Notes under the pieces: generated by a model | Told to the model about the DNA's origin: nothing | The model's input: only the letters and a program-made list of their open reading frames with translations | Database searches by the model: none | Part shown: positions 34,882 through 63,764 of the stretch, in pieces | Numbering within the stretch: the first letter of the stretch is position 1 | Layout: every line of letters begins with the position of its first letter | Program-made: the position numbers and the translations under genes | Assembly: GCA_030614915.1 (NCBI GenBank) | Contig: JAUXAG010000004.1 | Coordinates: 77,065 to 141,064 of the forward strand | DNA length: 64,000 nucleotides | Direction: 5' to 3' | DNA from: Actinomycetes bacterium | Lineage (GTDB): Bacteria; Planctomycetota; Phycisphaerae; JAACET01

Positions 34882-36829
34882 GAGAAGTTTCCATTTGGCA
34901 AGTCATAAACAAAAGGCCAACCATTATCTTTTGCTGGCCGTGGTGCTGGGGGCGGCGGGGCTGGTATATCTGCTGGGCAATGACAGAATTGCCCTGTGGG
35001 ACCGGGACGAGCCACGCTTTTCCCAAGCCGGGCGGGAGATGACCCGGGGCGAAGATTTCATCGTTCCCTATTTTAACGGCGACTACCGTTTTGACAAGCC
35101 CATTCTGATTTACTGGCTGATGACGGTGAACAACTGGCTATTGGGGGTGGGGGATTTTGCGGCCCGATTGGGGTCTTCAGTAAGTGGGGTGCTGGCCTGT
35201 GGGTTGATGTACCTGGTTGGTCGGAGGCTGTTCAATCGGCAGGTGGGGCTTATGGGAGCGGCGATTTTGGCGAGCTTCCCACTGTTCATGGTAGAAAGCA
35301 AGCTGGCTACGGCAGACGCTCTGCTGGCGGTGTTTATGGTGGCTGCCCTGGGCCTGTGGCTGGGCATGCAAGGGGGGCAAAGGCGGTGGTATTGGGCGGT
35401 GTTGCTGGGGTTGGCGTTGGGGCTGGGGACACTGACGAAGGGCCCGGTAATCTGGCTGTTCATCTGGGCGGGTTCGATGGCTACGCTGCTGCTGGAGCTG
35501 CGACGGGGTCGTCGGTGGGGTATCTGGCTGGTGGCAGCAAGCGTTGTGGGGCTGGCGGGGATGTGCTGGTGGTCGGGGCCGCCAAAGACCGTGCAGACGG
35601 GCGCGGAAATAGCGGAGCTTTTGGCTTGGCTGGGCGGAGGGTTTCTAATAATCGGCTTGCCCATAGCAGGAACGATTAGCCTGGGGGGTAATGAACGGAA
35701 AGGGGCCGGCTGGAGGAGACTGTTCAAAAGCTATGGGCTGGTGCTGCTGGGAATGGTAGTGGCGGGGGCGGTATTTTTGCCGTGGGGACTGGCGGCGGTG
35801 ATTCGGACAAACGGAGCGTACTGGAGCGAAGGGGTGGGCAGGCACGTGGTGGAGCGCACTGCGCAAAGTCTTGAGGGGCATTGGGGGCCGCCGGGATATT
35901 ACCTGGCGAGCTGGATAGTGTGCGCATTTCCGTGGAGCGTGCTTGGGCCTGTGGCTATCTGGCAGGGGTGGCGGATAAGCAAACGGGATCGGCGAGTGGC
36001 GGGGCTTCTGGGTTGGGTAATCGGCCCCTGGCTGGTGTTGGAAGTGGTGCAAACGAAATTGGTGCATTACGTGCTGGGATGCTATCCGGCCATGGCCCTT
36101 CTGATCGCGGTAGCGCTGTATCAGTGGCGGAACAAACTGAGCAAAATAATGGTCGGTAAAAAGCTGGGGAGGATTGCTCTGTCAGGGTTGTGGATCATCG
36201 GGCTGGTGGTGGCGGTAGGAATGACAATAGCAGTGGGCGTTTTAGCATTAGGGCCCATAGCAGAGCTTGGTGAGGGAGTATCGGGCAGATATAGGCTAGT
36301 GCTTGGGGCAGGCTTGGCTGGGTTAGTAGTCATAGCCACGGCGCTGGCGGTGCGGGGGAGTCTGAAGAAAGGCTGGGGCCGAGCTGGTGTGGTGAGTGGA
36401 TTCGTGGGAGTGATGATCTGCGGGGCAATTGCCGGGGGCTGGGTGGCGCCGCGTATCGGCAGTTACCGGATTAGTCGCAGGGCAGCAGAGGCGGCCAGGG
36501 AGATAAGTCCAGGAGGGACGCGGTTTGTGCTGTTCGGGTTCGATGAGCCGAGTGTTATCTGGTACCTGGGTGCAGATAAGCCGGTGCTGATAGTCAACAG
36601 TGTCGAACAATTGGCTGAGATTTGGGCAAAAGAAGAAAAAGTCTGTGCAATCATCAGCAAAAAAAAGATGGAGAGGTTGAAAGTTTCAGGATTTGAGCCG
36701 AGCGACGTCGGCAGATGGGTCGAGGGGGTTTATCTGGGCAAATGGCGGAGAGAAGAACTGTGGGTGGGGGTGAATAAAGAAGGCTTGAGGCAGAGAATAC
36801 AGAAAGAAATACAGAGTATTAGACGCTGA
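34880..36829 (+). CDS. ArnT/PMT-like (GT83/GT39) lipid-carrier-dependent glycosyltransferase
   Basis: DRDEPRF, FDKPILIYW, LTKGP, TKLVHYV motifs; many TMs; first in-frame ATG outside the PAP2 gene is at 34880. Confidence 0.87.
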   Translation: MRSFHLASHKQKANHYLLLAVVLGAAGLVYLLGNDRIALWDRDEPRFSQAGREMTRGEDFIVPYFNGDYRFDKPILIYWLMTVNNWLLGVGDFAARLGSSVSGVLACGLMYLVGRRLFNRQVGLMGAAILASFPLFMVESKLATADALLAVFMVAALGLWLGMQGGQRRWYWAVLLGLALGLGTLTKGPVIWLFIWAGSMATLLLELRRGRRWGIWLVAASVVGLAGMCWWSGPPKTVQTGAEIAELLAWLGGGFLIIGLPIAGTISLGGNERKGAGWRRLFKSYGLVLLGMVVAGAVFLPWGLAAVIRTNGAYWSEGVGRHVVERTAQSLEGHWGPPGYYLASWIVCAFPWSVLGPVAIWQGWRISKRDRRVAGLLGWVIGPWLVLEVVQTKLVHYVLGCYPAMALLIAVALYQWRNKLSKIMVGKKLGRIALSGLWIIGLVVAVGMTIAVGVLALGPIAELGEGVSGRYRLVLGAGLAGLVVIATALAVRGSLKKGWGRAGVVSGFVGVMICGAIAGGWVAPRIGSYRISRRAAEAAREISPGGTRFVLFGFDEPSVIWYLGADKPVLIVNSVEQLAEIWAKEEKVCAIISKKKMERLKVSGFEPSDVGRWVEGVYLGKWRREELWVGVNKEGLRQRIQKEIQSIRR

Positions 36830-37296
36830 TTGCGCAGATTGCGCAGATAATACAGAAAGAAATACAGAAAGATGGACCCCTGCCTCCGCAGGGGTGACAG
36901 AAAAGAGACCCCCAGGATAAACCTGGGGGCTAAACGAGGAAACCCCGGGTAACGCGTAGCGTCCTTCGGAAACCCGGGGCTAAATATGGGTGGGGGTGAA
37001 TAGTAAAGAAGGCCTGAGGCGTGCTCGTGCTTCCAGCCTTCGCAGTGCCTACTCCGCCGAAGTGGCTACGAAGGCTGGAAGCTGCTACGGAGAACGGATC
37101 GCAGAGTAGTAAGGCCTGGGACTTGAGGCGGATAATACAGAAAGAAATACAGAGTACTCACCACGAAGGCACGAAGTAGGAAAGAAGGATAAAAAGATGG
37201 ATCCCCGCCTTCGCGGGGATGACAATAAGGTGGGGCAAGTGGTCAGTCCGGGCTGGCGAGCCTACTTCGCCGAAGTAGCTTCGGCTACGAAGGCTG
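36760..37296 (+). repeat. Composite intergenic mosaic of short repeat modules
   Basis: CCCCCAGGATAAACCTGGGGGCTAAA (36909-36934), 17-bp unit (36953-36969), GCTCGTGCTTC...GAGTAGTAAGGC, ATACAGAAAGAAATACAG, CACCACGAAGGCACGAAG, palindromic ...GATGACA units. Confidence 0.85.
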
Positions 37297-38091
37297 AAGG
37301 GTGAGGATTTGGTTGGCGGCGGTGAGGGCTTGGGAAAGGAACTCGGCGGGGTCGGTTACAGGCGAGTTGGCCATGGTCGCTTCAAGAGTCAGATAGCCGT
37401 TGTAAGTTTGCCAAGGAAAGGCTCGGACGAAGGCGGAGAAGTCAATTACACCTTGGCCGGGAATCAGATGGTCGTCGGATTGGCCGAGGTTGTCGTGGAT
37501 GTGAGTGGTCAGCAGACGGTGGCCCCAGCGCCGCAGGAGGTTGAAGGTTTGGCCGGGGATGAGCTGGTCGTGGCCGGAATCGTAACATAAGCCGACGGTC
37601 GAGGCAGGGAATTGGCTGAGAATCCACTCGAGCGGAGCAATACTGTCTAAAGTGTTCTCGACGGCTAGGAGGATGTTGGCACTGACGGCGGCCTCTATCA
37701 GCTCGGTGAAACTGCGCCGGCCCAGGGCAGAAAGCTGCGGCGGAGCTTCTCCGCGATGAGCATGGATGATAACAACAGGGATTTGCAGCTCGAGGGCGTC
37801 ATTGATGGCGAGCTTGAGGCGATCGAGGGCTTTGGTTCTAAGGGAATTGTCCGGGCTGGATAAATCAGTAGTCAACTCAAAGGGGGCATGGAGAGATCCG
37901 AGAACCAGGCCGTGGACGTCTCGGGCGGCGCGGAGGAACTGCTTGTAATAGTCGGGCATGGGAGCAGTGCCGGGGTCGCCGGCTCCCCAGACGGTAATGG
38001 CCTTGAAGCCGGAGCGAATAATGAGCTCGAAGACCTGCTCGGGGGGCAAGTCAGGATTGAAATAACTGCAAATGGCGGGTTCAGGGAACAT
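37285..38091 (-). CDS. Sugar phosphate isomerase/epimerase (xylose-isomerase-like TIM barrel)
   Basis: LHAPF, LAVEN, CYDSGH, HIHDN..DDH.IPGQG.IDF, TLE motifs. Confidence 0.85.
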   Translation of the reverse strand: MFPEPAICSYFNPDLPPEQVFELIIRSGFKAITVWGAGDPGTAPMPDYYKQFLRAARDVHGLVLGSLHAPFELTTDLSSPDNSLRTKALDRLKLAINDALELQIPVVIIHAHRGEAPPQLSALGRRSFTELIEAAVSANILLAVENTLDSIAPLEWILSQFPASTVGLCYDSGHDQLIPGQTFNLLRRWGHRLLTTHIHDNLGQSDDHLIPGQGVIDFSAFVRAFPWQTYNGYLTLEATMANSPVTDPAEFLSQALTAANQILTLQPS

Positions 38092-38123
38092 GGAAGTTAT
38101 GGCCTTCAGTTACGAAGTCCGAA

Positions 38124-39446
38124 TCAATAGCGAATGACGTCCTTGGGGAGTTGGCCAGTAGTGGCCAGGGAATCGAGGTAACGAATTCGTCCGGCGACGA
38201 TGGTGGCGACGGCCTTGCCGGTGAGGGTTCGGCCGATGAAGGGGCAGTTACGGCTGAGGCTGTGAAAGGCTTCGGGGCGGACGAGCCATGTTCGGCGAGG
38301 GTCGATGAGGGTCAGGTCGGCAGGGCAGCCGGGGGCGATGCGGGGCCTCTCGAGGCCGAGGACGGCGGCAGGGTTTGTGGTGAGCTTTTGTATCAGCTGT
38401 GGCCAGGTAAGCAGGCCAGGGACGATGAGCTCAGTGATGTAAACGGCCAGGGCGGTCTCCAAACCAATCATGCCGGCGGGGGCGGCGGCGAAATCGCGGG
38501 CTTTGTCGGCAGGAGTGTGGGGTGCGTGGTCGCAGGCCAAGCAGTCGATGGTGCCGTCGGCCAGAGCAGTCTTGAGGGCGGCAACGTCGGCGGCACTGCG
38601 CAAAGGTGGGCGGACTTTGTAAAGAGGATCGAGCCCGCGACAAAGCTCGTCGGTCAGGGATAAGTGGTGGGGGGTGGCTTCGGTGGTGATGCTCAGACCT
38701 TCTGATTCCAGCAGGGAGAGAACTCGCACGGTGTCGGCAGATGAGACATGAGCGAGGTGGTAGCGGCAGGACGCGTCGGCAGCAGCGAGCAATTCGACGT
38801 CTCGAACGAAGGCTTCGGCCTCGGTTTGGCCGGATGAGCCGGACAGGCCGGTGGCGTCGGCGACAGGGCCGGCGTTGAGGTCGCCGCGTCCGTTGGCGGG
38901 GTCTTCGCAGTGCTGAATTATGGCGAGGTTCAAGGCGGCGGCCTGGTCGATAGCCTGCTGCATTAGTTGACGGTCGGATAGGTAGTCGCCGTCGTCGCTG
39001 AAGGCGAGGGCGCCGGCTTGGGCCATGGCGGGCAAGTCGGCGAGTTGTCGGCCCTGCCGGCCAATGGTAACGGCTCCGACGACATATAGGCGGCAGAGGT
39101 CGGTCTGCTGAGCGTGGTCGGCGACGAAACGGACCATCTCGGCAGTGTCGATGCAGGGAGTGGTGTTAGGCATGGCAGCGACGGCGGTAAATCCGCCGCA
39201 GACGGCGGCCCGCGAACCGCTGAGGATGGTCTCGGCCTGCTCGCGGCCGGGCTGGCGGAAGTGGACGTGGATGTCAATCAGGCCGGGAGTTATCAGCAGG
39301 CCCTGGGCATCGATGGTGATGTCTGCTGTGCTGGGGACTTGGCCAAGGGCGGCTATTCGGTCGTCCTCGATGAACAGGTCTGCAGGGACAGCGGGGCTGC
39401 CAGCGGGGTCGATAGTTCGGCCGTTTTTGATTAGTACTGAATTCAA
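38124..39446 (-). CDS. pyrC: Dihydroorotase
   Basis: PGLIDIHVHFR, MPNT, HCED, EATPHH, DHAPH motifs; follows pyrB. Confidence 0.93.
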   Translation of the reverse strand: MNSVLIKNGRTIDPAGSPAVPADLFIEDDRIAALGQVPSTADITIDAQGLLITPGLIDIHVHFRQPGREQAETILSGSRAAVCGGFTAVAAMPNTTPCIDTAEMVRFVADHAQQTDLCRLYVVGAVTIGRQGRQLADLPAMAQAGALAFSDDGDYLSDRQLMQQAIDQAAALNLAIIQHCEDPANGRGDLNAGPVADATGLSGSSGQTEAEAFVRDVELLAAADASCRYHLAHVSSADTVRVLSLLESEGLSITTEATPHHLSLTDELCRGLDPLYKVRPPLRSAADVAALKTALADGTIDCLACDHAPHTPADKARDFAAAPAGMIGLETALAVYITELIVPGLLTWPQLIQKLTTNPAAVLGLERPRIAPGCPADLTLIDPRRTWLVRPEAFHSLSRNCPFIGRTLTGKAVATIVAGRIRYLDSLATTGQLPKDVIRY

Positions 39447-39482
39447 TAGCTAAACTCAGTGTGGTCGTAGAGAGCTAAACGC

Positions 39483-40529
39483 TCAGTGATCAAGAATGTC
39501 CTTGTCTACGGCGAACATGTGAGCAATGAGGGCGGCCCGGATCCACATGCCGTTCTCGGCTTGGTCGAAATAGACGGCCCGGGGATCAGAATCGATGGCG
39601 GTTTGAATCTCTCGGCGACGGGGCAAAGGATGCAGGATGTAACAGTGGGGCTTGAGGGTTTTGAGGTGCTGAGCCTGCAGGCCGAGGCGGCTGTAGTCCA
39701 TGGAAATCTTGGCGCCCTGGTCCCATTCGTCCTGGATGCGGGTCATGTATATGGCGTCGACTTCGGCAAGGTGGGCGTGAATGTCGCTAGTTTCAATAAA
39801 GGCAGTGGAGTTTTGGCGGAGGTGAGCTTTGATATCTTCGGCCATGGCCAGGTCGTCGGGTGCAGCAAAGATCAATTCGACGCCTGGATAGTTGGTGAGC
39901 AGATAGGCGAGGGAGCGGGCGGTTCGGCCTCGCTTGAGGTCGCCGACGAGCATAATTTTTTTGTGGTCGAGACCGCCGACGTCGGCGAAGCAGCGGTGGA
40001 GGGTGTAAAGGTCGAGCAGGGCCTGGGTGGGGTGCTGGTCGGTTCCGGAGCCGGCGTTGATGATGGGTTTTCGGCCGGGCCAAGATAGCATCTGAAAGGC
40101 CATTTTTTCGCAGAAGCCGGCTTCGGACTGGCGCATGATGACAAGATCGTGATAAATGGAAAAGATTCGCAGGGCGTCCTGCCGGGTTTCGCCCTTGACT
40201 TCGGAAGAAGTGCTGGGGTCGCGGACGTCTGCAGTGCTCATGCCCAGGATGTGACAGGCGGCGGCAAACGACAGAAAGGTGCGGGTGGAAGGCTGAGTGA
40301 AGTAGAGCATGGCCCGGCGGTCGGGCAGGAGGGCGCGGAGAAAGAGCCGGCCTTGGCTGGTGTGGCTGAGGGTGCGGACGGCGTCGGCCAATCGGAAGAG
40401 GTCCTCCAAGAGAGGTCGATCAAACTGCTGGGCATAGACCAGGGCCAAGAGGCGGTTGTTCTCGATGAAATATTGACAGCGTTGGCTGACTCGCAGAGCT
40501 AGGAATTCGTCGAGACTGACAGTGGACAT
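39483..40529 (-). CDS. pyrB: Aspartate carbamoyltransferase
   Basis: PSTRT, HPTQALLD, YMTRIQ, HPLP motifs. Confidence 0.93.
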   Translation of the reverse strand: MSTVSLDEFLALRVSQRCQYFIENNRLLALVYAQQFDRPLLEDLFRLADAVRTLSHTSQGRLFLRALLPDRRAMLYFTQPSTRTFLSFAAACHILGMSTADVRDPSTSSEVKGETRQDALRIFSIYHDLVIMRQSEAGFCEKMAFQMLSWPGRKPIINAGSGTDQHPTQALLDLYTLHRCFADVGGLDHKKIMLVGDLKRGRTARSLAYLLTNYPGVELIFAAPDDLAMAEDIKAHLRQNSTAFIETSDIHAHLAEVDAIYMTRIQDEWDQGAKISMDYSRLGLQAQHLKTLKPHCYILHPLPRRREIQTAIDSDPRAVYFDQAENGMWIRAALIAHMFAVDKDILDH

Positions 40530-40581
40530 GGGCTCACCCGGAACTCGGCATATTCTCTGCCGTAGGTTACGCTGACAGATC

Positions 40582-40663
40582 TAATATAACAGGTCATCAG
40601 AATTTGGGCAAGTGCAAGCCGTGGTCAAAAAGCTTGCCAACGCGTACCGGATTCTGCTATATT
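40582..40663. promoter_or_regulatory. Divergent sigma70-type promoters for pyrBC (minus) and tRNA-Ala (plus)
   Basis: Minus: TTGCCC-17-TATATT with TG; plus: TTGCCA(40634)-18-TATATT with TG. Confidence 0.55.
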
Positions 40664-40677
40664 GGTCAATGCAGAAT

Positions 40678-40748
40678 GGGGACGTGGTGTAACGGGAGCA
40701 CGCCGCGGTCGCATCGCGGAAATGGGGGTTCGATTCCCCTCGTCTCCA
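40678..40748 (+). tRNA. tRNA-Ala (CGC)
   Basis: GGGGACG/CGTCTCC acceptor with G3:U70, discriminator A, CCGCG-GT CGC AT-CGCGG anticodon arm, TTCGATT T-loop. Confidence 0.92.
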
Positions 40749-40781
40749 GTCTTCGTTCACCGTGAGGCGGCGGACTACTCT

Positions 40782-41312: not shown

Positions 41313-41449
41313 TTTGAAGGCTCCTTGTGGATTGAACGAGAAACTGGACTATGGTGGTAATCTACTAAACTTTGAAGGATTTTTGTAATAAAATCGGGGT
41401 AGAATCGACTAGTAATACGGGGGCAGCTGTCCGAAAGGGTGCCCAGGTA

Positions 41450-41968: not shown

Positions 41969-41970
41969 AG

Positions 41971-43176: not shown

Positions 43177-43179
43177 TGG

Positions 43180-43480
43180 AAGAAATATCAAAAATCAAAA
43201 TGCAAATAGCAAAATTACAGAGCAATGCGTAGCATCCTGTGGAAATTCAAAAATAAGAAAGACGAAGAATACTAAGAAATACAGAAAAAAATTAGACGCT
43301 GATTCCGCAGATTACGCTGATGAATGCAGAGAATACAGAGCCCCCCGGCGCAGAGCCGGGATAAACCTGGGGGCTAAACAAAGAGCCCCCCGGTGGGCCC
43401 CCCAATCGCGAACTATCGCGATTGGGGACCCCTAAAACCTGGGGCTAAATACGCCCAGACGTAACTGGGGGGCTTTTTTA
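43180..43480 (+). repeat. Composite intergenic repeat mosaic ending in a terminator-like hairpin
   Basis: A-rich 7-mer arm with 17-bp insert (43226-43242), CCGGCGCAGAGCCGG, CCCCAATCGCG...CGCGATTGGGG, GGGGCTAAA x2, hairpin+T-run at 43453-43479. Confidence 0.82.
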
Positions 43481-43498
43481 TCGCCAGGAATAACAAAA

Positions 43499-44717: not shown

Positions 44718-44782
44718 AACTGGAGGTCAGGAAAGACAAGTCCGGCAAAGCCCGCAGCGATAGAATCAGGAGGATTGGTCAG

Positions 44783-45121: not shown

Positions 45122-45360
45122 GAAGAGAGGCTTGAGGAAGAAAGAGAAAGAGCTCACCACGAAGGCACGAAGAACACGAAGTAAGAAAGAAGGGGCAACG
45201 CATAGCGTCCTTCGGAAGGCACAAAGGCAGAAAGGAAGAAAGACGCAGAAAGAAATACAGAAATTAGACGGTGATTGCGCTGATTACGCAGAAAGAAAGA
45301 TAATTAGCCACAGATTTCACTGATGAACACAGATGATACAGAAAGAAATACAGAAACATA
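45120..45360 (+). repeat. Composite intergenic repeat mosaic
   Basis: GGCTTGAGGAAGAAAGAGAAAGAGCTCACCACGAAG also at ~51291-51327; 17-bp unit at 45199-45215; CACAGAT module. Confidence 0.82.
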
Positions 45361-47446: not shown

Positions 47447-49600
47447 TTAGGGCGGCGAAGCAGATCGAAGGGAGAGGTCAGCCGAAGAGACAGTCTTGAT
47501 GTAGCCGTGGTCGATGCAGAGCTGAAGCAACTCAGCAGCCCTGGGTCCGGCGACCTTGGCGCCGGAATCGCCGTGCTCGATGACGACGGCAAAGGCGATC
47601 TGGGGTTTATCAACTGGAGCAAAGCCGGCAAACCAGCATCGCCAATCATCCGTGATATTTCGGTTATATTCGGCGGTTCCGGTTTTTCCGGCAATTCTCA
47701 GGCCGCCCAGGTCGGTGTCGTGTAGTTCACTGATTCGATAGGCGGTGCCCCCGCTCTCATGGACCACGGCCTCCATGGCGTCAATAACGAGCTTGATGTG
47801 TTCGGGGTTGACTTCGAGGTCTATTGAGCCGGCGTCTTGGGCCTGGTCAACAGTCAGACTTGGTGGGACATAGACGCCTCGGCGGGCAATGGTGGCCATC
47901 ATGTTGGCGACTTGCAGGGGAGTAACGGCGATCTTGCCCTGACCGATAGCCATCTGGCGAAGTTCGGCGGCGAGCAGTCGTCTCAAAGGCCCGCCATGGC
48001 TTTGGATGCCGCCTGGAATCATGCCGGGATGTTCCCGAGGCAGGTGTAGATTGGTCGGTCGAGTGAGCCCGATGTTGACAAACCAGGCAACCAAATCCCA
48101 ACTGAGTAATTCAGCGACGGTGGCACAACAAACGTTGCAGGAGCGTTTGATGGCGTCATAGGGATCGACGGAGCCGTGCGGGTGATTGCCGCAACTGGGC
48201 TGGGCAAATCCGTCCTGGTCCGTGGGACAATGATAAACGGTCCGGGGGGTGATTACGGGCGGCTCGGGTTCGGTATCGGCACTGCGAAGACGGGGGGAGA
48301 GCCCGGCGAGGATGACGGCGGGCTTGACAATGGAGCCGGGGGGATAGATGGCCTCGACGCAGCGGTTCATCCAGGGGTAATCACCCTTGACGTGGAAGGG
48401 TGGTTTGGAATCGGCTCGCCCGAGCAGGGGCGTGGAGGCCAGGGCGAGGACTTGGCCGGTGGCGATATCAATGACCACGGCGGCAGCGGGAGCAGCGGGA
48501 GAATCAGGAGAATCGGGAGAAGGTTTGGCCATGGCCTTTTCGAGGTCGGCCTGGAGGTCGATGTCGATGGTCAAGTGAAGGTCTCGGCCTTTTTCTGGGG
48601 GGAGGTTTGAGCCGGGGACCAGATTTCCGAGGCGGTCCTTTTGCTGCAATCCGCGGGAGCCACGCAGGACACTCCAATCGTAGCCTCGTTCGACTCCGCT
48701 GCGGCCGATGATGTCGCCTTCGGGCGCATATCTGCGGCGGGGATCATTGAGGTGAGCTTCGGCGGGGCCCTTTGCGAGGGCTTCCAAGTCGTCCTTGTTG
48801 ACCTGGCCGATAGAGCCAATGAGCTGGGCAGCCACGTAGCCGCGGGGATAAATGCGGCGAGTGGTAGGAATCAGAGTAAGCCATTCTGGGCAGCCCAGGT
48901 CGTTCTGAATTCGTCTGGCAGTGTCGTTGGGCAGGTAAAAAGCGACAGGTATAAAAGACAACTCCTCGCGGAGGACCAGAGAGTCGATCTGTCGGCGAAT
49001 AGACTGGGACTGGGCACTCTCGAGCCAATTGTCCTGGGCTTTTTGAAGGCGCGTTTCATATATACTTACGCTGGTGCTTCGCATCCGCTCGATTCTACGG
49101 ATGGTCTGTTGGCGTCGATCATTAATTAGTTCCTCGATTAGTTCCTTTATTCGTTCGGGATCTTCGATCAAGTTGGCTTTTTCGGTCAGTTCGGCAGGCA
49201 GGGGAATCAGGCTAGGCAAGTCATCCCACATCTTATCGATCTGGGACTTTACCTGCTGGAGATATTCAGGGGGGGTAGGGTCCCTTCTTTTGAGCTTGAT
49301 ACCATTGGCCCGGGCGCGGGCTCTAGCTAGCGTGTCGACGTATTTTTCGTCGAGACTGATGGCTCCGTAATGGATGCCGATATTGAAGCAAGGCTCATTG
49401 GCGGCTAGGAGTTTTCCGTTTCTGTCGAATATTTGGCCACGGACCGAAGGCAAGAGGACCGGAGGGCGTAAAAGAAGTTGCTGGGCATCGTCGAGGTAGT
49501 CCTGGTGGGCATAGACCTGAAGAGCTATCAGACGAGCGAAAATGACAACAAAGAAGATGGAGAGAATCAGAAAGAAAATGATAAGGCGACGATTAAACAT
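47447..49600 (-). CDS. mrdA: Penicillin-binding protein 2 (class B transpeptidase)
   Basis: RGQIFDRNG, R.YP.G, SIVK (SxxK), SCN (SxN), KTGT. Confidence 0.9.
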   Translation of the reverse strand: MFNRRLIIFFLILSIFFVVIFARLIALQVYAHQDYLDDAQQLLLRPPVLLPSVRGQIFDRNGKLLAANEPCFNIGIHYGAISLDEKYVDTLARARARANGIKLKRRDPTPPEYLQQVKSQIDKMWDDLPSLIPLPAELTEKANLIEDPERIKELIEELINDRRQQTIRRIERMRSTSVSIYETRLQKAQDNWLESAQSQSIRRQIDSLVLREELSFIPVAFYLPNDTARRIQNDLGCPEWLTLIPTTRRIYPRGYVAAQLIGSIGQVNKDDLEALAKGPAEAHLNDPRRRYAPEGDIIGRSGVERGYDWSVLRGSRGLQQKDRLGNLVPGSNLPPEKGRDLHLTIDIDLQADLEKAMAKPSPDSPDSPAAPAAAVVIDIATGQVLALASTPLLGRADSKPPFHVKGDYPWMNRCVEAIYPPGSIVKPAVILAGLSPRLRSADTEPEPPVITPRTVYHCPTDQDGFAQPSCGNHPHGSVDPYDAIKRSCNVCCATVAELLSWDLVAWFVNIGLTRPTNLHLPREHPGMIPGGIQSHGGPLRRLLAAELRQMAIGQGKIAVTPLQVANMMATIARRGVYVPPSLTVDQAQDAGSIDLEVNPEHIKLVIDAMEAVVHESGGTAYRISELHDTDLGGLRIAGKTGTAEYNRNITDDWRCWFAGFAPVDKPQIAFAVVIEHGDSGAKVAGPRAAELLQLCIDHGYIKTVSSADLSLRSASPP

Positions 49601-49686
49601 TTTATTTGAAGAAAAGGCACAAAGGCACAAAGCAGATAAAGAAAGGCAGAAAATAAAGAGCAGCCGTTACAATCGGGGCCTAAATA

Positions 49687-51184: not shown

Positions 51185-51650
51185 AAGACAAGAGACAAAA
51201 AGGAAAGGCTTGCTCGTGCTTCCAGCCTTCGCAGCCGAAGCTGCTTCGGCGGAGTAGGCTCGCAGCGAAGCGCCGCTTCGCAGAGTAGTAAGGCTTGAGG
51301 AAGAAAGAGAAAGAGCTCACCACGAAGAGGGCACCCCAATCGCAATACACTGCGATTGGGGACCCCACGAAGGACACGAAGTAGGAAAGAAGGGGCAACG
51401 CGTAGCGTCCTTCCCGTAGGGACCTGTGGTCGGAAACCCTAAGAAACCCCCGGTAAAACCGGGGGCTAAATACAAGAGCAGAAGTCCCCCAGGATAACGC
51501 GTAGCGTCCTGCGGAAGGCACAGAGGCACAAAGGCACAAAGCAAGAAAAGCAACCCCCAGGATAAACCTGGGGGCTAAATACAAGAGCAGAAGACCCCCA
51601 GGATAAACCTGGGGGCTAAACAAAGAGACCCCCGGTGGGCTAAATAAAAG
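51185..51650 (+). repeat. Composite repeat mosaic inside mre operon
   Basis: Three complete CCCCC(A/G)G..AAA..C(T/C)GGGGGCTAAA palindromes (51447, 51554, 51595), two 17-bp units, nested inserts. Confidence 0.87.
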
Positions 51651-52747: not shown

Positions 52748-52759
52748 ACTCCTATTAAT

Positions 52760-52852
52760 TAGGCTTGAGGCTTGAGGCCTGCTCGTGCTTCGCAGCGAAG
52801 CGCCGCTTCGCAGAGTAGTAAGGCCTGAAGCTTGAGGCCTGAGACTTGAGGG
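52760..52852 (+). repeat. (GGCTTGA)n heptamer array interrupted by a 44-bp module
   Basis: AGGCTTGAGGCTTGAGGCCT-[GCTCGTGCTTCGCAGCGAAGCGCCGCTTCGCAGAGTAGTA]-AGGCCTGAAGCTTGAGGCCTGAGACTTGAGG. Confidence 0.8.
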
Positions 52853-53028
52853 TTCAATTGGGCAAACATTCTACCGCAAGTCCGGAAGATATGGAAGAGG
52901 CAAATCCACCGTGGCGAAGGCAGCTTTGCCAGGGGCAAGGCCCAATCTACCGGCTGAGTAAATCGGGGCCTTGAAGTCCGAGAGGCCCAGGGTCCGATAA
53001 ATGAAGAAGCTTCTGGGTCCCAAGACTA

Positions 53029-53238: not shown

Positions 53239-53265
53239 TTTTCGAAGACCTCAACAAAAGATGGA

Positions 53266-53520
53266 CTAACCCGAATATTCCACAAGAGTTTTGGTTTTGG
53301 CCGGCTATTTTGGCCAGCTTCTGCGTTCTCGGCTCTAACTGTCCTCGACGTATATATTTATACGACTCCGGTCAGTTAGAGCCTGCGGCCTTGAATCTGA
53401 GCAAAATTTCTCGGCCAAAACAGTGTGTTACTTCCATCGAGGCCGAAAATGATACTTAACTGATTTATTCTACATAAATTACGGAACACTGTACAAAATC
53501 TCGTGAAATATCCGGGCTAA
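53266..53520. mobile_element. MITE-like element with imperfect ~23-bp TIRs and CTAA target duplication
   Basis: CTAA-CCCGAATATTCCACAAGAGTTTTG ... CAAAATCTCGTGAAATATCCGGG-CTAA; internal palindrome GCTCTAACTG...CAGTTAGAGC. Confidence 0.72.
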
Positions 53521-54889: not shown

Positions 54890-55120
54890 GGGGCTCGAGG
54901 CTTGGGGCTTGGGGCCTGAGGCTGGAGGCAGATAATACAGAAGAAAATACAGATTATTTGCCACAAAGAAGGCGGTAGCCCGATCGCGAAATGGTGCGAT
55001 TGGAGACACCCGGCGCAGAGCCGGGATAAACCCCCGGTAACGCGTAGCGTCCTTCAGAAACCGGGGGCTAAATACAAGAGCAGAAAACCCCCAGGATAAA
55101 CCTGGGGACTAAATATGGGG
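54890..55120 (+). repeat. Composite intergenic repeat mosaic
   Basis: GGCTTGG/GGCCTGA heptamers, ATCGC...GCGAT hairpin, CCGGCGCAGAGCCGG, palindrome with 17-bp insert (55041-55057), CCCCCAGGATAAACCTGGGG. Confidence 0.82.
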
Positions 55121-55172
55121 TGATCCGCAGAACCTTTGGGCAGTTGAAGGGCAGTTCGTGCAGATTTTGGGC

Positions 55173-56354: not shown

Positions 56355-56412
56355 CCTGTAAATCTACAATAGCAATCGCATCTCGAGCACGCCGTTCCGG
56401 GGCGAGAGTCAA

Positions 56413-57762: not shown

Positions 57763-57878
57763 GGCCTCGGCCCACACTGAGTCAGCAGAACTCTGACTGT
57801 ACGAGCAACTCGCCTGTCCGTCAGCAACGAAAGCTACTCCGGCGGAAGGATCCGGACAAAAAGAGGAACGAGTCTGAG

Positions 57879-57907
57879 ATTTTATGCTAGGCGTCATAGA
57901 TTGTCAA
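57879..57907 (-). promoter_or_regulatory. Near-consensus sigma70 promoter of GT4-GH57 operon
   Basis: TTGACA-17-TAAAAT. Confidence 0.7.
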
Positions 57908-58239
57908 GTCAGGTTTTGCAGCATCCCACAAAGCAGGCACAAAAAACGTGCAGCTGAATCTGCGACTGCTCCAGGCAGTGCCCAGACGGCCGGGGCCCGG
58001 CTGTGCTGCCGAAATGTCGGGCCAGGCCGGTCCAAGCAACACTGGGTAGGACACTAAGCCATCCGGGTGCAAACCTTACAGTAGAAATCGGTCGAAAAAC
58101 AAGACCGTATTAGCTATGGATAAGGATCGGCGTTCAATTACTACATTTTTTGGAGTCTGGGGGGTGGCTGGGGGTCCGATATATCAGGACCGCTGCCTAA
58201 GAACGTGTAAATAAATAATCTTCCATTTTGCCGCTAAAT

Positions 58240-58410
58240 AAACCCCTACGATAAAGCGGGGATAATCAAAAAGACCCCCAGGATAAACCTGGGGGCTAAA
58301 CAAAGGACCTGGTATCCTGATTCGGCGACACAAAGTGTCCTTCCCGTAGGGAGCTGTGGTCGGAAACCCTAAGAAACCCCCAGGATAAACCTGGGGGCTA
58401 AACAAAGAAC
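58240..58410 (+). repeat. Composite intergenic repeat mosaic
   Basis: Two CCCCCAGGATAAACCTGGGGGCTAAACAAAG copies; TCCTTCCCGTAGGGAGCTGTGGTCGGAAACCCTAAGAAACCCCC nearly identical to 51408-51451. Confidence 0.85.
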
Positions 58411-58473
58411 TCGTGAATTTTGAGCAACTCGACCTTTTTGAAGCAAAAACGAAACCTTATTCATTTACAAGTC

Positions 58474-59259
58474 CTAGACGTGCAATTGGCTCTTGCGGTC
58501 GGCCAACTGATCCTTGAGGCGATCGAGGATTGAGGAGTGAATCTGTGAGACGCGAGACTCAGATAAATCGAGGGTGGCGCCGATCTCCTTCATGGTCATG
58601 CCTTCATAATAATAGAGTGTAATAATCAGGCTTTCGGTGCGTGAGAATCCCTTGGTAATCAAAGACTTGAGGTCGCGGCGATGGGCCTGCTGTACGGGGT
58701 CGCTGCCCTTGGGGTCTTTGAGGATGTCGATCTCCTCGATCTGTCTGGAGCCGTCGCTGTCAAACCACTTGCGATTGAAGGAGACCTGTGAGACGGCGTG
58801 GGCGTCGCGGATAATCTTGTTCAATTCCTTCATGGATACGCCCATGCGCTGAGCAATCTCATTGTTGGAGGGTAGGCGTCCGAACTCAGCGTGGAGGGCC
58901 TGAGTGGTGTTTTCGAGTTTGCGTCCGCGGGCCCGGACTAATCGGGGGACCCAGTCCATAGAGCGGATTTCGTCGAGGATGGCCCCGCGGATACGAGGGG
59001 CACAGTAAGTTTCAAACTTGATGCCCCGGTCAGGGTCAAAGGCCTCGATGGCGTCGAGGAGGCCAAAGGTTCCGGCACTGATAAGGTCGTCGAGCTCGAC
59101 CTCTCCGGGCAGTTTGGTGGCCAAGCGTTCGGCATTGAACTTGACCAAAGGCAAGAAATTGGTCAAGAGGAAGTTGCGAAGCTCCTGGGAGGCGTTTTTG
59201 CGATAATCGTGCCAAACTTCGGCGAGTTCCAGAGCGGCTTTCTGATCGGTAGCGGGCAT
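58474..59259 (-). CDS. fliA: Sigma-28 (FliA/WhiG family)
   Basis: DDLISAG..GLLDA, RIRGAILDEIRSMDWVPR, LSESRVSQIH. Confidence 0.94.
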   Translation of the reverse strand: MPATDQKAALELAEVWHDYRKNASQELRNFLLTNFLPLVKFNAERLATKLPGEVELDDLISAGTFGLLDAIEAFDPDRGIKFETYCAPRIRGAILDEIRSMDWVPRLVRARGRKLENTTQALHAEFGRLPSNNEIAQRMGVSMKELNKIIRDAHAVSQVSFNRKWFDSDGSRQIEEIDILKDPKGSDPVQQAHRRDLKSLITKGFSRTESLIITLYYYEGMTMKEIGATLDLSESRVSQIHSSILDRLKDQLADRKSQLHV

Positions 59260-59325
59260 GTGTAAGCTCCTGTCAGATACAAATCCTCAGATGCGAAGCA
59301 CCGGCGGGAAGACGGTGCGAGTCAA

Positions 59326-60186
59326 CTACAAAAACGAATTGGCGGCCCGGAGAAAAAAGGGCTCCTGGGGCTGAGCCGATCGCAAGGGCGGCTGGGAGTC
59401 CAGCAGGCGTCTGGCTAAACGGTGTACCTGCCGAGCAGCACGGCAGCGTGGAAAACTCCACATGAAAGGACGACGGGCAGTTACAGCTAAGGGCACATGC
59501 CGGTCGTAGAGAAGAAAGCCGGCTAAAGGCAGCTCGAAATGAAGGAACCTGCGAGCGGCGCCGGCAATTCGGGCGTGAACGCTGCGGACTTGGGAGACAT
59601 TTTTGGCCATGTTGACCACCAAAAGAATGCTGGTGAGCTGACGTTCGGTCAGCAAGACCTTGATAACGGCATAAGCGTCGGTGATGGCTGGGGGCTCGGG
59701 GGTGGTGAGCACCAGGACATCATCAGCGACAGCGGCAAACGACAAGACATTGCTGGATAAACCGGCGCTGGCATCGACGATGAGAAAATCAGCAGATCTC
59801 TCCAGAGAATCCAAGAAACTGATGAGCCGAGCCCGGTGGAAATCAGACAGCTCGGCCAGGGCTGTAAGTCCTGAGGCGCCGGGGACTAAACGAAGTCGTG
59901 GCGCAATGTCAGTAGTTATTTCGGCAGGATTGTGGGAGCTCTTTAGTAAAGTCGAAAGATTTGGTCCGGGCGGCAGGTCGAAGAGGATGTCGAGATTAGC
60001 CAGGGCCAGGTCGGCATCGACGAGGACGATGCGTCGTCCAGCGGAGGCCAAGCTAAGGGCGAGATTTGCGGCGAGATTGCTTTTGCCGACGCCTCCTTTG
60101 CCGGAAACCAGACAGACGACGCGAGCCTGGGCCACGGTGGCCTTAGCCAGCCGACGAAGGTGATGGGCCTGGTCAAAACTAATCAC
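59326..60186 (-). CDS. flhG: MinD-like ATPase FlhG/FleN
   Basis: SGKGGVGKS, DADLALAN, TTPEP.AITDAYA; between flhF and fliA. Confidence 0.9.
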   Translation of the reverse strand: MISFDQAHHLRRLAKATVAQARVVCLVSGKGGVGKSNLAANLALSLASAGRRIVLVDADLALANLDILFDLPPGPNLSTLLKSSHNPAEITTDIAPRLRLVPGASGLTALAELSDFHRARLISFLDSLERSADFLIVDASAGLSSNVLSFAAVADDVLVLTTPEPPAITDAYAVIKVLLTERQLTSILLVVNMAKNVSQVRSVHARIAGAARRFLHFELPLAGFLLYDRHVPLAVTARRPFMWSFPRCRAARQVHRLARRLLDSQPPLRSAQPQEPFFLRAANSFL

Positions 60187-61378
60187 GGTGCTCCTCGAGA
60201 ATACGAGCGGCTAAATCGCGGGAAGAAGCTACTTCGATATCGTCGGGGACGTCCTGGCCGGCGGTAATGTAGGAAAGAGGGATGGCCGAAGCATTCATGC
60301 GGCCGGAAGCCAAGCTGGCAAAGACGTTGAGAACCGGAGAAAGAGAGATGACCTCGTCGAGCTTGGTGAGCAATAACTGGTCGATGCCAAGAAGGCTGAA
60401 CTTTTCGATGGCGGAAATCATCTGGGGATAAGCGGTGGTGGCGGCGAGGACGAGCTGGGTCTGATGGGAACCAAGGACCTGCTGAAAGGAGCGGAGCTCG
60501 GCGAGGCGAAGGTGGTCGTTGGGACTGCGGCCGGTAGTGTCGATGAAAATGAGTGAATGGTCGCTCAGGTGAGCGAGCTGGCGGGAAAGCTCCTGAGGAG
60601 TAAGCACGGCAGAAAAAGGCACGTCAATAATGTCAGCGTAAGTGCGCAACTGATCAACGGCAGCGATACGGTAGGTATCAATGGTCAAGAGGGCTACGGA
60701 GGTGTTTCGCTGGAGCTTGTACTGGGCGGCGAGCTTGGCGATGGTGGTGGTTTTGCCGACACCGGTGGGTCCTACGAAACTTACAATTCGGGGTTTTCCG
60801 GGCAGTCCGGGCTGGAGCGGACCAGAGGTGGGAATCAACTTTTCAATGCGGTTAAGGAGAGGATCAGCGTCAGGCTCCGAGCTGAGGTCCAAGCGGCTGG
60901 GCAGGTCGCGGAGAAGTTCGTTGGCTAAAGACTCAGCAATGTGCCTGGCCAGGAAGGACTCTAACAAGGTGCTGATCCCGCTTGGCAGAGGAGTTGAGGC
61001 AGGACTTTGGGCAGGGCGGGCAGAAGGAGTGAGTTTGAGGCGGTCATCGCTTAAAGAAGCGATTTTGCCGGGCGTCTGGTCCTGCTGGAGCCAACCGGGG
61101 ACGTCCGTGGAAGGTAAGCGGACACGGCCGGCGGTTGTGGGTTGGGGCGAATGAGGCTGCTGAGAAGGTGCAGGGGGCGTGGCAGCGTGAAACTCGGCCG
61201 GGCAGGTGAGGGAATCCTCGGCGGCGGTAATCTCGACGAGTTGGCGTCGGGAGCGGCTGAGCAGGCCGCCCTTGCGCAAGGTGCGGGTGTTGAGAATAAG
61301 GGCGTTAGGACCCAGGTGGGCTTTGACCTGGGCAACGGCGGCAGCCATGCTGTGGGCCTGAAATATGTGAGTCTTCAT
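60179..61378 (-). CDS. flhF: Flagellar SRP-family GTPase FlhF
   Basis: GPTGVGKTT, DTYRIAA, DTTGRS, TKLDE, GQDVPDD. Confidence 0.93.
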   Translation of the reverse strand: MKTHIFQAHSMAAAVAQVKAHLGPNALILNTRTLRKGGLLSRSRRQLVEITAAEDSLTCPAEFHAATPPAPSQQPHSPQPTTAGRVRLPSTDVPGWLQQDQTPGKIASLSDDRLKLTPSARPAQSPASTPLPSGISTLLESFLARHIAESLANELLRDLPSRLDLSSEPDADPLLNRIEKLIPTSGPLQPGLPGKPRIVSFVGPTGVGKTTTIAKLAAQYKLQRNTSVALLTIDTYRIAAVDQLRTYADIIDVPFSAVLTPQELSRQLAHLSDHSLIFIDTTGRSPNDHLRLAELRSFQQVLGSHQTQLVLAATTAYPQMISAIEKFSLLGIDQLLLTKLDEVISLSPVLNVFASLASGRMNASAIPLSYITAGQDVPDDIEVASSRDLAARILEEHRD

Positions 61379-63681
61379 GAGAACAACTCCAGGGTCTGCT
61401 GGGCAAGCAGAGCGGGTCGGTCGATCGGGTTCTGGGGCAAAGAGAAACTGGCCAAGGTATGAATCGGGACACTTTCGAGGATTTCCGAACGTGCCAAGAC
61501 GGGCAAGGCCGGGGCTCGTCCAGCCAAGACACGAGCTAGGGCAGGGCGAATCTCTGAGGCAACCAGAAACACTAACGGTTCGGGCAGGACTGGAAGGGCG
61601 TGGAGATAATCAACGATGCTATCAACGAGCTTTGATAAGCAGGCAGTAAGAGACTGTTGGTCAGGTGGGCCGGCAAAGCCGTTAATCCGGGGGCGATGGA
61701 GCAGTTCGTTGAGGGTCCGCTCGGCAGAAGGCTCGAAGCAGAGGCAATGGAGGCGGCCATCAGAGGCGGTGAACTGGCGGGTAATGATGGGGGCCAAGCT
61801 GCAGCGGACGCGGCTGGTCATCTCGGCGGGGTCGCAGGAGACGGCAAGGGCATCGCTAAGGGCCTCGAGGATAGACTCCAAATCACAAATGGGTATGCCT
61901 TGGACCAAGAGCTCCTGGAGGACCTTGTGAATCTGGGCGACGGAAAGCTTGGAGTTGTCGTTTGAGCGATCCGGGCCAAGAGGCTGGTGCCTGGGGTCGT
62001 AGCCGATGAGTTCGGCGACCAAGAGAGGAGCCCGCTGGGCAAGGTCTGCAAGAAGGGCGTGGACGTCCTGACGGGAGAGCAACTGGTCGGCGTGAGTATA
62101 AATAATGTGACGAAGATAACGGGGCAAGACCCAGTCGGAAGAAATGACTGTATATCGGAGTTGTCGAGCAGAGGCTTGGGCACAATGGGGAATCCAAAAG
62201 GCCGGGCGCTGGGTGAGCGGATCGGTCAGAGCCAAGCCGTCAAGGCGCTCGGTAGGAAAACCGGGAGCAACGGCGAGGAGCTTGCCGGGATGGATGCGTC
62301 CGCGGAGAACCTCTAAGCCGCGGACCTTGATGATGTAGTCGCGGGCGGGTATGCGGACATTATCGTGAGCAAAAACACCGGGGACGAGAAATCCCAGATG
62401 GACGGCAAGGTCGCGACGAATAGCCTCGATGCGGGTTAACAAGTTTCCGGGTGCAGAAGTATCGAGCAGGGGCAAGAGAGAAAACCCGAGCTCGATTTCC
62501 AAGGGCTCAAAGCGAAGATAAGCTGAAGGAGCCGATTGGGTCTGGCCGGCGGAAGGGCCGCTAAGCTCCTGGCAAGTCGGCGGAGGTATAAGCATTGGGG
62601 GCTGGCTGGCGTGGTCGGGCAGAGCGGGGGAGTAGGCGGTGGCGGGCTGGGGTTGGCCGGGCTGCTCGGAGCCGGATTTTCGCAGGGTCCAGGTGATGAC
62701 GAGGAGACATCCGCCCAGGATGAACAGGGGGAGCTTGGGCAGGCCGGTGACCAACAAGAGGGCGAGGAAGATGGTGGCGATGACGAGTGCGCCTGGCCGG
62801 CCGAAAAGCTGATCGACCATTTCACGGCCGAGGTCGCTGCGTCCGGTTGAACGGGTGATAATCAGTCCGGCGGAAATGGCAATGATGAAAGCGGGCAGCT
62901 GAGAAACCAGACCGTCGCCAATAGTCAAAGTGGTAAAGACGGCCAAGGTGTCCGAGAGGCTCCAGCCGTGCTGGAGCAGGCCGACACACAAACCGCCAAT
63001 GATGTTGACCAAGGTGATGATGACCGCAGCGATGGCATCGCCACGGACAAACTTAGAGGCCCCGTCCATGGCCCCGTAAAAGTTTGACTCGCGAGCAATG
63101 GTCTGGCGGCGGTCGGAGGCCTGGGTTTCATTGATCAGGCCGGCGTTGAGGTCGGCGTCAACGGCCATCTGCTTGCCGGGCATGGAGTCGAGGGTGAAAC
63201 GAGCGGCGACCTCAGAAATACGAGTGGCGCCCTTGGTAATGACTACAAACTGGATAACAACCAGAATGGTAAAGATCACAAAGCCAACGGCCAAGGAACC
63301 GGAAGTGACGAAATGGCCGAAAGACCTGATAACCTGTCCGGCAGCGGTAGTAGCAGCGATGGGAGGGGCACCATCAGAGCCGGCGGTGAGGATCAGGCGA
63401 GTAGTGGCTACGTTGAGCACGAGGCGAACCAGGGTCGTGCCCAAGAGCAGCGAAGGGAAGACGGAGAACTCGAGGGGGTCGGAAACCTGAATGCTGGTGA
63501 AGAGAATGATGGCTGCCAGGGTGAGGTTGGCCACCAGGAGGATGTCAATCATCCAGGGGGGCAAAGGAAAAAGAACGACGAGGATTAGCCCGGCACATGC
63601 CAGGGGAAATATCAGGCCGCGCTTGCGGTGCAAGAGACTGATCAACGGGTTGGCAGGTGATGTTGTAGGTAGATCAGGCAT
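61375..63681 (-). CDS. flhA: Flagellar export gate protein FlhA
   Basis: FSVFPSLLL, RISEVAARFTLDSMPGKQM, FYGAMDGASKFVRGDA, TIGDGLV. Confidence 0.93.
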   Translation of the reverse strand: MPDLPTTSPANPLISLLHRKRGLIFPLACAGLILVVLFPLPPWMIDILLVANLTLAAIILFTSIQVSDPLEFSVFPSLLLGTTLVRLVLNVATTRLILTAGSDGAPPIAATTAAGQVIRSFGHFVTSGSLAVGFVIFTILVVIQFVVITKGATRISEVAARFTLDSMPGKQMAVDADLNAGLINETQASDRRQTIARESNFYGAMDGASKFVRGDAIAAVIITLVNIIGGLCVGLLQHGWSLSDTLAVFTTLTIGDGLVSQLPAFIIAISAGLIITRSTGRSDLGREMVDQLFGRPGALVIATIFLALLLVTGLPKLPLFILGGCLLVITWTLRKSGSEQPGQPQPATAYSPALPDHASQPPMLIPPPTCQELSGPSAGQTQSAPSAYLRFEPLEIELGFSLLPLLDTSAPGNLLTRIEAIRRDLAVHLGFLVPGVFAHDNVRIPARDYIIKVRGLEVLRGRIHPGKLLAVAPGFPTERLDGLALTDPLTQRPAFWIPHCAQASARQLRYTVISSDWVLPRYLRHIIYTHADQLLSRQDVHALLADLAQRAPLLVAELIGYDPRHQPLGPDRSNDNSKLSVAQIHKVLQELLVQGIPICDLESILEALSDALAVSCDPAEMTSRVRCSLAPIITRQFTASDGRLHCLCFEPSAERTLNELLHRPRINGFAGPPDQQSLTACLSKLVDSIVDYLHALPVLPEPLVFLVASEIRPALARVLAGRAPALPVLARSEILESVPIHTLASFSLPQNPIDRPALLAQQTLELFS

Positions 63682-63713
63682 AAAATAAGTCCAAACTCCA
63701 TTTCACCGGTAAA

Positions 63714-63764
63714 ACCCCCGGCAAAGCCGGGGGCTAAATAGCCCCCCGGACGCAGCCGGGGGGC
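63714..63764 (+). repeat. Two palindromic modules at flhB/flhA junction
   Basis: CCCCCGGCAAAGCCGGGGGCTAAA and GCCCCCCGG-ACGCAG-CCGGGGGGC. Confidence 0.7.

Follow-up and report, generated by a model that had tools for sequence, protein, structure and literature searches.

How does a bacterial chromosome come to hold intergenic regions built of DNA modules a few tens of nucleotides long that sit inside one another? The question is raised by a 64,000-nucleotide (nt) stretch of DNA (G000:C13:77065-141064, hereafter the window) from G000, the metagenome-assembled genome (MAG) of an uncultured marine member of the Phycisphaerae (Planctomycetota), which comprises 2.56 Mb in 36 contigs, with 54.7% GC and an estimated completeness of 95.8%. 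The window carries ribosomal protein, rpoBC, mreBCD-pbp2-rodA, and flagellar genes, and its spacers carry mosaics of a short hairpin that we call P, of still smaller modules nested in P and in each other, and of tandem arrays. A first-pass annotation of the window had listed nine main and five smaller loci of this kind; masking the 12-mers that occur at least 6 times genome-wide recovers all of them, and every module coordinate in that annotation was reproduced. Based on the results discussed below, we lean towards the view that the mosaics consist of several families of selfish hairpins that are mobilized as single strands and that nest in the loops of one another; replication errors would contribute to the outcome.

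In P, a GC stem of 8 bp carries an A-rich loop of 5 nt and a tail, CTAAA, that stays unpaired. We count 52 matches to the P pattern in G000 and 9 and 12 in G001 and G002, two fragmented MAGs of the same genus (83% and 89% complete, respectively), and none in 38 genomes of the same class outside the genus; the reversed control pattern gives no match. In the window, the intact palindromes reported earlier at 36909, 51447, 51554, 51595, 58275, and 58377 are all P copies, and a further one lies at 63715. A candidate enzyme for P is found in G002 (contig C2). It is the product of an open reading frame (ORF) of 163 aa, has an HUH motif as well as a C-terminal tyrosine, and is encoded between the genes for a membrane protein and for 5S rRNA; one P copy lies upstream of the ORF on the + strand and another downstream of it on the - strand. 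The arrangement is that of a repetitive extragenic palindrome (REP) with its REP-associated tyrosine transposase (RAYT). The residues H99, H101, and Y157 are invariant in 13 sequences of the family, and the family profile matches structures of the IS200/IS605 transposase TnpA (E = 3.6e-5 to 0.016). The best NCBIfam model, REP_Tyr_transpos, scores 26 against a cut-off of 80, and Pfam Y1_Tnp 22.7 bits against a cut-off of 23, scores that mark the clade as divergent.

RAYT homologs are present in 147 of the 301 genomes of the class, and in one family there are several copies per genome. At all 12 class loci that were inspected, a hairpin-plus-tail repeat, in some copies imperfect, stands beside the gene; the stems are mostly of the type CCCC..GGGG and genome-specific, and the tail, CTAA(A/C) with a few TTAA, is kept across the class and is neither GTAG nor CGTC, the tags of the described REP super-families. 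Among 80 metagenome RAYT loci, 15 match the narrow P pattern, and in the 12 listed P lies within ~110 nt of the gene in every case, inverted copies of it bracketing the gene; the P sequence on the flanks of two metagenome homologs (L136 and L137, 64-70% identical) is exactly that of G000. We conclude with high confidence that P is the REP of a new, class-wide RAYT clade. The first-pass annotation had supposed that enzymes encoded elsewhere spread the modules and had recommended a search for RAYT genes flanked by the same modules. For P the supposition holds, the gene being found in G002 and in metagenome relatives and not in G000; for the accompanying idea, that the smallest modules are moved by several enzymes differing in target preference, no support was found. 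At the orthologous site of G000 (C12:72626-72811) there is no RAYT gene and only a decayed hairpin, so that the P population of G000 may be orphaned. The G001 contig stops short of this ancestral site.

Other Y1 sequences were seen in these genomes. A second Y1 gene of G002 (C130:10770-11441, 223 aa, 65.8 bits on REP_Tyr_transpos) is flanked by direct repeats of a GGTTCCTGACCCCTTTT-type motif and not by hairpins. The sole Y1 trace in G000 (C28:29182-29265) is what remains of the C terminus of an IS200-type transposase, 28 codons long, and two GC hairpins resembling a right end come after it. At metagenome locus L139, the last ~100 nt of the RAYT gene and the REP hairpin are repeated in tandem three times, and in G144, a closed relative, the 3' end of the RAYT gene and the REP hairpin recur six times with a 126-nt period (C1:3329684-3330338); in both cases, it looks as if REPs had spun off from the 3' end of the gene. 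A reverse transcriptase was also considered as a mobilizer and rejected, since the sole gene of this kind in G000 (C35:262090-263574, 494 aa; best PADLOC models generic RT and UG17/DRT) is of the defence type (UG17-like) and its inspected ORFs and repeats hold no modules. A perfect 104-nt direct repeat, its copies 416 nt apart, overlaps the start of this gene.

Smaller modules are hosted in the loop of P. Searching G000 for a CTAAA tail with exact 7-nt arms yielded 97 hairpins, 80 of which have a plain loop of 5-7 nt. Four carry in the loop an 18-nt module, R18 (ACGCGTAGCGTCCTTCGG), which folds as two mini-hairpins; three carry R18 itself interrupted after TTC by another module, S18 (CCGTAGGGACCTGTGGTC); five carry Q, a palindrome of 38-39 nt; and two carry Q with an extra hairpin, V, in the Q stem (the remaining three are adjacent P copies merged by the search). 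The P loops at 36943-36984 and 55031-55072 had been described as holding a 17-bp unit; the sites are correct, and we count the unit, R18, as 18 nt with an ambiguity of 1 nt. Genome-wide, R18 is present in 17 copies, 9 with S18 and 8 without, located in P loops and in an AAAAATC array. S18 also occurs at the identical position in another module, T, which is a sister of R18, so that this second host is no independent target. The earlier claim that S18 splits the 17-bp unit is thus right at 51414-51431, and at 58344-58361 the split host is T and not R18. In two copies S18 is in turn split by a 20-nt unit, with no overlap at the junction. Q is found at 13 loci in at least five kinds of context (six P loops, one heptamer array, one CACGAAG array, one nine-mer array, and four others), which include both placements annotated before, in a CACGAAG array at 51329-51366 and in a P loop at 43395-43432.

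All of these modules are small, R18, S18, the 20-nt unit, Q, V, and the H core and I37 described below measuring 18-39 nt and forming one or two mini-hairpins each. Empty and filled sites were tabulated per module, a blind 10-mer junction screen having been swamped by adjacent copies of the same repeat. By our reading, the 11 nesting positions comprise eight hairpin loops, two unit borders of tandem arrays, and one stem, and nesting reaches three levels. Junctions overlap by 0-2 nt; the H loop is the exception, most of its inserts having the 5-nt repeat CTTCG on both sides. The inserts enter P at TA/AA in its A-rich loop, S18 within its TGT loop, and R18, T, and H behind their TTC, and no motif is common to these points. 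When the composites, those of mosaic locus 1 included, are folded as single-stranded DNA, the host stems are kept and side hairpins are added (z-scores of -0.9 to -5.8). The expectation of discrete modules with precise and recurrent ends was borne out, identical ends being seen in different hosts. Neither P nor the R18+S18 composite has a match in IMG/VR.

ACGCAG in the loop and CGTT as the tail mark a second family of hairpins, P2, which is empty at 5-6 sites; at seven sites with perfect arms and two with decayed arms, it is filled mid-loop by the 31-nt H core. The H core keeps these ends (CTCGTGC ... GAGTAGTA) where it lies between two AGGCYTG heptamers. The H pattern has 25 matches, of 21 nt (1), 31 nt (9), 38 nt (2), and 39 nt (9) or with larger inserts (4), and two deeper nests lie beyond its search gap. 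The nine copies of the 39-nt form lie in heptamer arrays, one being what had been annotated as an intact 44-bp module within such an array at 52781-52824 (AGGCYTG heptamers, core 52782-52820). The splitting of the same module near 51222 was likewise verified: the interruption falls after TTC and consists of a 37-nt unit, I37, plus a repeated TC (51223-51261). The 31-nt form is a 10-nt tandem duplication and the 39-nt form a direct-inverted-direct triplication of GCTTCGC. An inverted self-copy had also been proposed at ~37035-37095; a variant inverted copy of the host is indeed present within the insert at 37024-37111, but the junction is not clean. The duplications in the H loop and this insert can be explained by slippage or template switching at hairpins.

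H is also found beyond the genus. Six IMG/VR contigs, of 49-73% GC, contain it in seven stretches, with fixed arms that are exact or carry one substitution and with a variable middle. Among them is a phage contig that encodes a major head protein and in which H occurs twice in P2-like hairpins between head genes. Of 400 other Planctomycetota genomes, 3 have H as well, placed at the tips of hairpins with tandem-repeat arms; the core has no match among PLSDB plasmids or INPHARED phages.

In which strand the modules are written proved informative. All 27 matches of nonpalindromic modules in the window lie on the + strand, and in G000 44 of 49 P loci have the written strand of P on the G-rich strand (p = 7.6e-9). 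The ratios of copies with and against the GC skew are 7:3, 16:1, 9:0, and 9:1 in the four arrangements of flanking genes and 3:0 at contig ends. R18, S18, H, P2, the heptamers, and two other array types follow the same orientation rule (195:30 when pooled, the counts not being independent). The skew, on a 40-kb scale, is regional, since genes of either strand share its sign, and it is not driven by the coding strand. The G-rich strand generally serves as template for the lagging strand, and this is most likely the case here. That the orientation is linked to the skew irrespective of genes speaks against a role in transcription; it favours events at the replication fork that involve single-stranded DNA, which fits the earlier supposition of an action on hairpinned single-stranded DNA. 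According to passages of PMC6006769, IS200/IS605 elements have the template of the lagging strand as their target. The closed relative G144 has only 11 REP copies (6 of them in one tandem block), with one on the + strand at 0.47 Mb and 10 on the - strand at 2.9-3.4 Mb, too few for a replichore test. Of note, the regional skew is unusually strong, 0.1-0.2, on contigs C13, C1, and C35 of G000, and gene orientation is weakly tied to it, 72% of the long genes of C13, including the rpoBC and ribosomal protein operons, being on the C-rich strand.

Comparison of orthologous intergenic regions, also recommended by the first-pass annotation, showed that mosaics are missing from orthologous spacers of both congeners. 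Genes are 85-93% identical to those of G000 in G001 and 65-79% in G002, and both MAGs are syntenic with the window at 43.5-60.4 kb; beyond the genus, the closest MreB homologs, from Phycisphaerae MAGs, are 74-77% identical. These homologs and the flagellar and mre genes of the window led us to reject a cyanobacterial origin, which the appearance of the repeats had suggested. The mreC-mreB spacer measures 486 bp in G000 and 36 bp in G001 and is module-free in G002. Downstream of mreB, the series of heptamers, H, and further heptamers seen in G000 corresponds in G001 to 1.5 heptamer units, and at 57.9-58.5 kb ~290 bp of extra DNA in G000 are missing from G001. At 54.9-55.2 kb, mosaics are present in both G000 and G001 and are built of different modules. 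The module composites of G000 and G001 are 96-100% identical, which is above the identity of the genes. Both genomes contain R18, whether or not it carries S18, as well as H, and R18, S18, and H were not found in G002 at its 89% completeness. Related-strain contigs from four studies skip 52771-52857 (one contig), 53265-53517, 58200-58478, 45181-45340, and 49600-49683. Module borders are sharp, with 4-10 contigs per border from four metagenome runs sharing a module and diverging exactly at 51221/51222, 51260, 51441, 52782, and 52820, the last two positions being the borders of contigs that carry the H core. These Logan contigs are short and cannot span a whole mosaic, and uncovered stretches and read depth were excluded as evidence.

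Our current working hypothesis is that noncoding selfish families pile up in the spacers, spreading, now or until recently, as single-stranded hairpins at the replication fork. P would be moved as a REP by its cognate RAYT-type HUH-Y1 transposase. The small modules would enter exposed single-stranded spots of other modules, which would account for branched hairpins of up to three levels, an anatomy that we observe and a process that we infer. The written strand would be the active one, on the probable lagging-strand template where IS200/IS605-type HUH enzymes are known to act. Our best guess for the smallest modules is that a RAYT-like HUH enzyme moves them in trans, and slippage and template switching may contribute the internal duplications. 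Several observations weigh against this proposal. P never occurs in the inverted pairs of REP doublets forming hairpins (REPINs), neighbouring P copies within 3 kb in G000 being direct in 29 of 29 pairs and inverted in none. The G000 assembly contains no RAYT or intact Y1 gene, only the 28-codon 3' remnant, and yet this RAYT-less genome has the most P copies (52 versus 9 and 12). R18, S18, and H were found neither at the 80 metagenome RAYT loci nor in the RAYT-bearing G002, so that the RAYT is not tied to these modules. Insertion polymorphism of a single module at one orthologous site was not seen, whole mosaics differing instead; some junctions are imprecise, for example at 37024-37111, and the H-loop variants look like replication errors. 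Finally, the congener MAGs are fragmented, and with origin and terminus unmapped in the draft, the identification of the lagging-strand template rests on the general rule.

A bolder version, possible if rather doubtful, treats the two-hairpin modules of 18-39 nt as autonomous-looking nano-elements, which would be the smallest mobile DNA yet seen, that an unrecognized enzyme excises as single strands and pastes into the exposed loops of hairpins on the lagging-strand template, the enzyme being either a RAYT-like HUH protein acting in trans or a PF05635 protein, and that are carried by phages between distant hosts, the branched hairpins accreting like rRNA expansion segments. If loop-targeted single-strand insertion were true, mobile DNA would have a new lower limit of size, and structured noncoding DNA would be seen to grow by accretion.

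A dedicated enzyme may not be needed at all if hairpin slippage, snap-back, and template switching make palindromes grow while recombination or gene conversion between short motifs shuffles the composites. We think this unlikely, even though the 10-nt tandem duplication and the direct-inverted-direct GCTTCGC triplication in the H loop (nine copies each), the insert that is an inverted variant of its own host, the junction microhomologies TC, CG, and CTTCG, and the missing Y1 gene of G000 all speak for it, and the GC-skew strand bias fits replication errors equally well. Such a process leaves unexplained why foreign inserts with identical ends sit in unrelated hosts (H in P2 loops, heptamers, and arrays of other organisms; Q in at least five contexts), why an H of 37-40 nt has at most one arm substitution across contigs of 49-73% GC that include a phage, and why composites are more alike between species than genes are (96-100% versus 85-93%). 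Improbable in our judgment is the proposal that the modules are selected transcript elements, such as terminators, mRNA stabilizers, or small RNAs, whose nesting reflects the evolution of RNA structure and not mobility. Read in its complement, P does have the look of an intrinsic terminator, a GC stem with TTTCTTT after it, 25 of the 32 P copies in codirectional spacers face the way a terminator would, and stems covary among copies and species. The orientation, however, tracks GC skew, at 7:3 where the genes predict the opposite and at 9:1 in divergent spacers without gene ends, and on this ground the terminator reading of P was rejected: it is the skew that P follows and not the flanking genes. 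Nor would the proposal lead one to expect mosaics that are missing from the congeners' orthologous spacers or spacers that often hold several tandem copies, and no Rfam family comes near threshold at the mosaics. Hardly credible, to our mind, are chimeric joins among short repeats in a metagenome bin. G000 is a MAG of 36 contigs, congener contigs often terminate in modules, and Logan contigs break at module borders; against this stand the same modules and nested composites in independent assemblies (G001, G002, IMG/VR contigs, and JGI metagenomes), a module length below the usual assembly k-mers, and flanking genes that are intact and syntenic.

Returning to single-strand mobilized hairpins, the closest known counterpart of P is the system of REPs, their bacterial interspersed mosaic elements (BIMEs), and RAYTs. 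As described in passages of PMC3733652, PMC6006769, and PMC3116915, REPs share with P, itself of 20-26 nt, an intergenic GC hairpin and dozens of copies that are often clustered, and P too has a conserved unpaired tail, though of another sequence; further points of likeness are the HUH-Y1 gene that lies between inverted repeat copies, in a congener and in relatives, and the genome-specific variants of the stem. Some REP families have long structured loops, according to part of PMC3733652. So far as these passages go, P differs in its CTAA(A) tail (TTAG on the opposite strand, and not GTAG or CGTC), in the head-to-tail order of adjacent copies without REPIN doublets, in its strong GC-skew strand rule, in loops that hold discrete foreign modules found elsewhere too, and in the lack of the enzyme gene in G000 and at its ancestral site there.

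Very small nested repeats have been known since work on the small dispersed repeats (SDRs) of Nostoc. Elhai et al. in 2008 (Genome Res 18:1484) reportedly described SDR1-8 of Nostocaceae as nested in tandem heptamers, the short tandemly repeated repetitive sequences (STRR). The modules of G000 behave in the same way, ~20-30-nt units being nested mutually and in heptamers with precise junctions. In passages of the citing papers PMC4390886, PMC2884548, and PMC3116915 that treat these repeats, the likeness extends to modules of ~20-40 nt without terminal inverted repeats or coding capacity, to precise insertion into short repeats and tandem heptamers, and to lineage-specific families with no known enzyme. 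The modules studied here differ from them, as they appear in those passages, in the host phylum (Planctomycetota and not Cyanobacteria), which makes membership in SDR1-8 unlikely, probably in sequence, and in hosts that are mostly REP-type hairpin loops; the strand rule and the cross-taxon module are documented here. Single-strand transposition of IS200/IS605, as presented in part of PMC6006769, resembles our case in its hairpin-defined ends, the lack of target duplication, and an orientation tied to the replication strand. The modules, at 18-39 nt, are nevertheless several-fold smaller than any derivative described there, and they enter loops rather than sites 3' of a tetranucleotide; G000 has neither a resident TnpA gene nor a fixed tetra- or pentanucleotide target. 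In a limited collection of literature, from which the supplementary species lists of PMC3733652 were absent, we found no report of nested module mosaics in Planctomycetota. The genus makes the question of what moves such repeats testable, since it offers a REP-RAYT pair with RAYT-bearing and RAYT-less species and a clean strand rule that points to the replication fork. Further handles are sites graded from empty through filled to doubly filled, their junctions exact, heptamers tied to one small gene, and a module shared with phage.

That small gene encodes a four-helix-bundle protein of family PF05635, of which G000, G001, and G002 have 3, 4, and 5 copies above the Pfam cut-off. Inverted GGCTTGA arms bracket the intact G000 gene (C5:89174-89488) and the copy on G001 contig C198, and the AGGCYTG heptamers that host H in the window are the arm unit of these two cassettes. 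Other copies have arms of other 7-11-mers, with inverted arms at most copies inspected, and gene-less heptamer arrays are dispersed at ~36 sites, where they are host to other modules. The first-pass annotation had listed four-helix-bundle genes among its candidates; it had foreseen neither this tie of the heptamers to a cassette nor the occurrence of H outside the genus. A similar organization is described in passages of PMC4990558 for the 23S rRNA intervening sequence, an ORF with inverted arms and variable tandem heptamers: there, as here, a gene (S23p, PF05635) is bracketed by inverted arms of tandem 7-mers. The cassettes reported here, in contrast to those of the passages cited, lie between protein genes or beside tRNA genes and not in rRNA. 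Those directly downstream of tRNA genes are G000:C8:52799-53113, which has an in-frame TAG, and the copy on G001 contig C235.

The mosaic loci of the window are collected in Table 1. The first-pass annotation had stated that the window has no mobilizing gene; in agreement with it, no transposase or recombinase family was found in the 54 crude ORFs of the window that were scanned (39 by Pfam, 15 by NCBIfam).

Table 1. Positions of module mosaics and of the modules nested in them, in window coordinates
Feature	Position	Strand	Content
Mosaic locus 1	36777..37225	+	Arrays of 12-mers and of 9-mers; P, 36909-36934; P with R18 in loop, 36943-36984; heptamers
Locus 1, H core carrying two insert levels	37024-37111		
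Mosaic locus 2	43183..43452	+	Palindrome Q (43395-43432) in loop of P-type hairpin
Mosaic locus 3	45128..45356	+	CACGAAG and 12-mer arrays; R18 copy, 45198-45217
Small module cluster	49613..49648	+	49600-49683 skipped by related-strain contigs
Mosaic locus 5, mreC-mreB spacer	51206..51649	+	Module composites; P at 51447, 51554, and 51595
Locus 5, H core with I37 insert	51213-51290		I37, 51223-51261
Locus 5, Q inside CACGAAG array	51329-51366		
Locus 5, R18 holding S18	51398-51435		S18, 51414-51431
AGGCYTG heptamer array around 39-nt H core	52757..52851	+	H core, 52782-52820
Mosaic locus 7	54890..55107	+	Heptamers, 54898-54918; P with R18 in loop, 55031-55072
Mosaic locus 8	58257..58409	+	P, 58275-58300; module T with S18, 58327-58368; P, 58377-58402
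Locus 8, S18 within T	58344-58361		
P variant and P2	63715..63767	+	P variant, 63715-63738; empty P2 hairpin with CGTT tail, 63742-63767
Small clusters	8654..8686, 18424-18458, 19600-19663, 23278-23362, 32763-32837	not assigned	From the 12-mer mask

Two repeats of other kinds deserve mention. The window stretch 53266-53519, of ~250 bp with an internal inverted repeat, is missing from the orthologous G001 spacer, recurs at three other G001 sites with 86-98% identity, and is skipped (53265-53517) by one metagenome contig; it looks like an element related in kind to miniature inverted-repeat transposable elements and distinct from the mini-modules. At the start of a G000 contig (C7:1-250), a tandem array with a 59-nt period has as its unit a GGATCC...CTGCGCAGG hairpin joined to a P whose 5' arm is replaced, and a stem variant of the same GGATCC module is found in G001, in the spacer orthologous to window position 54.9 kb.

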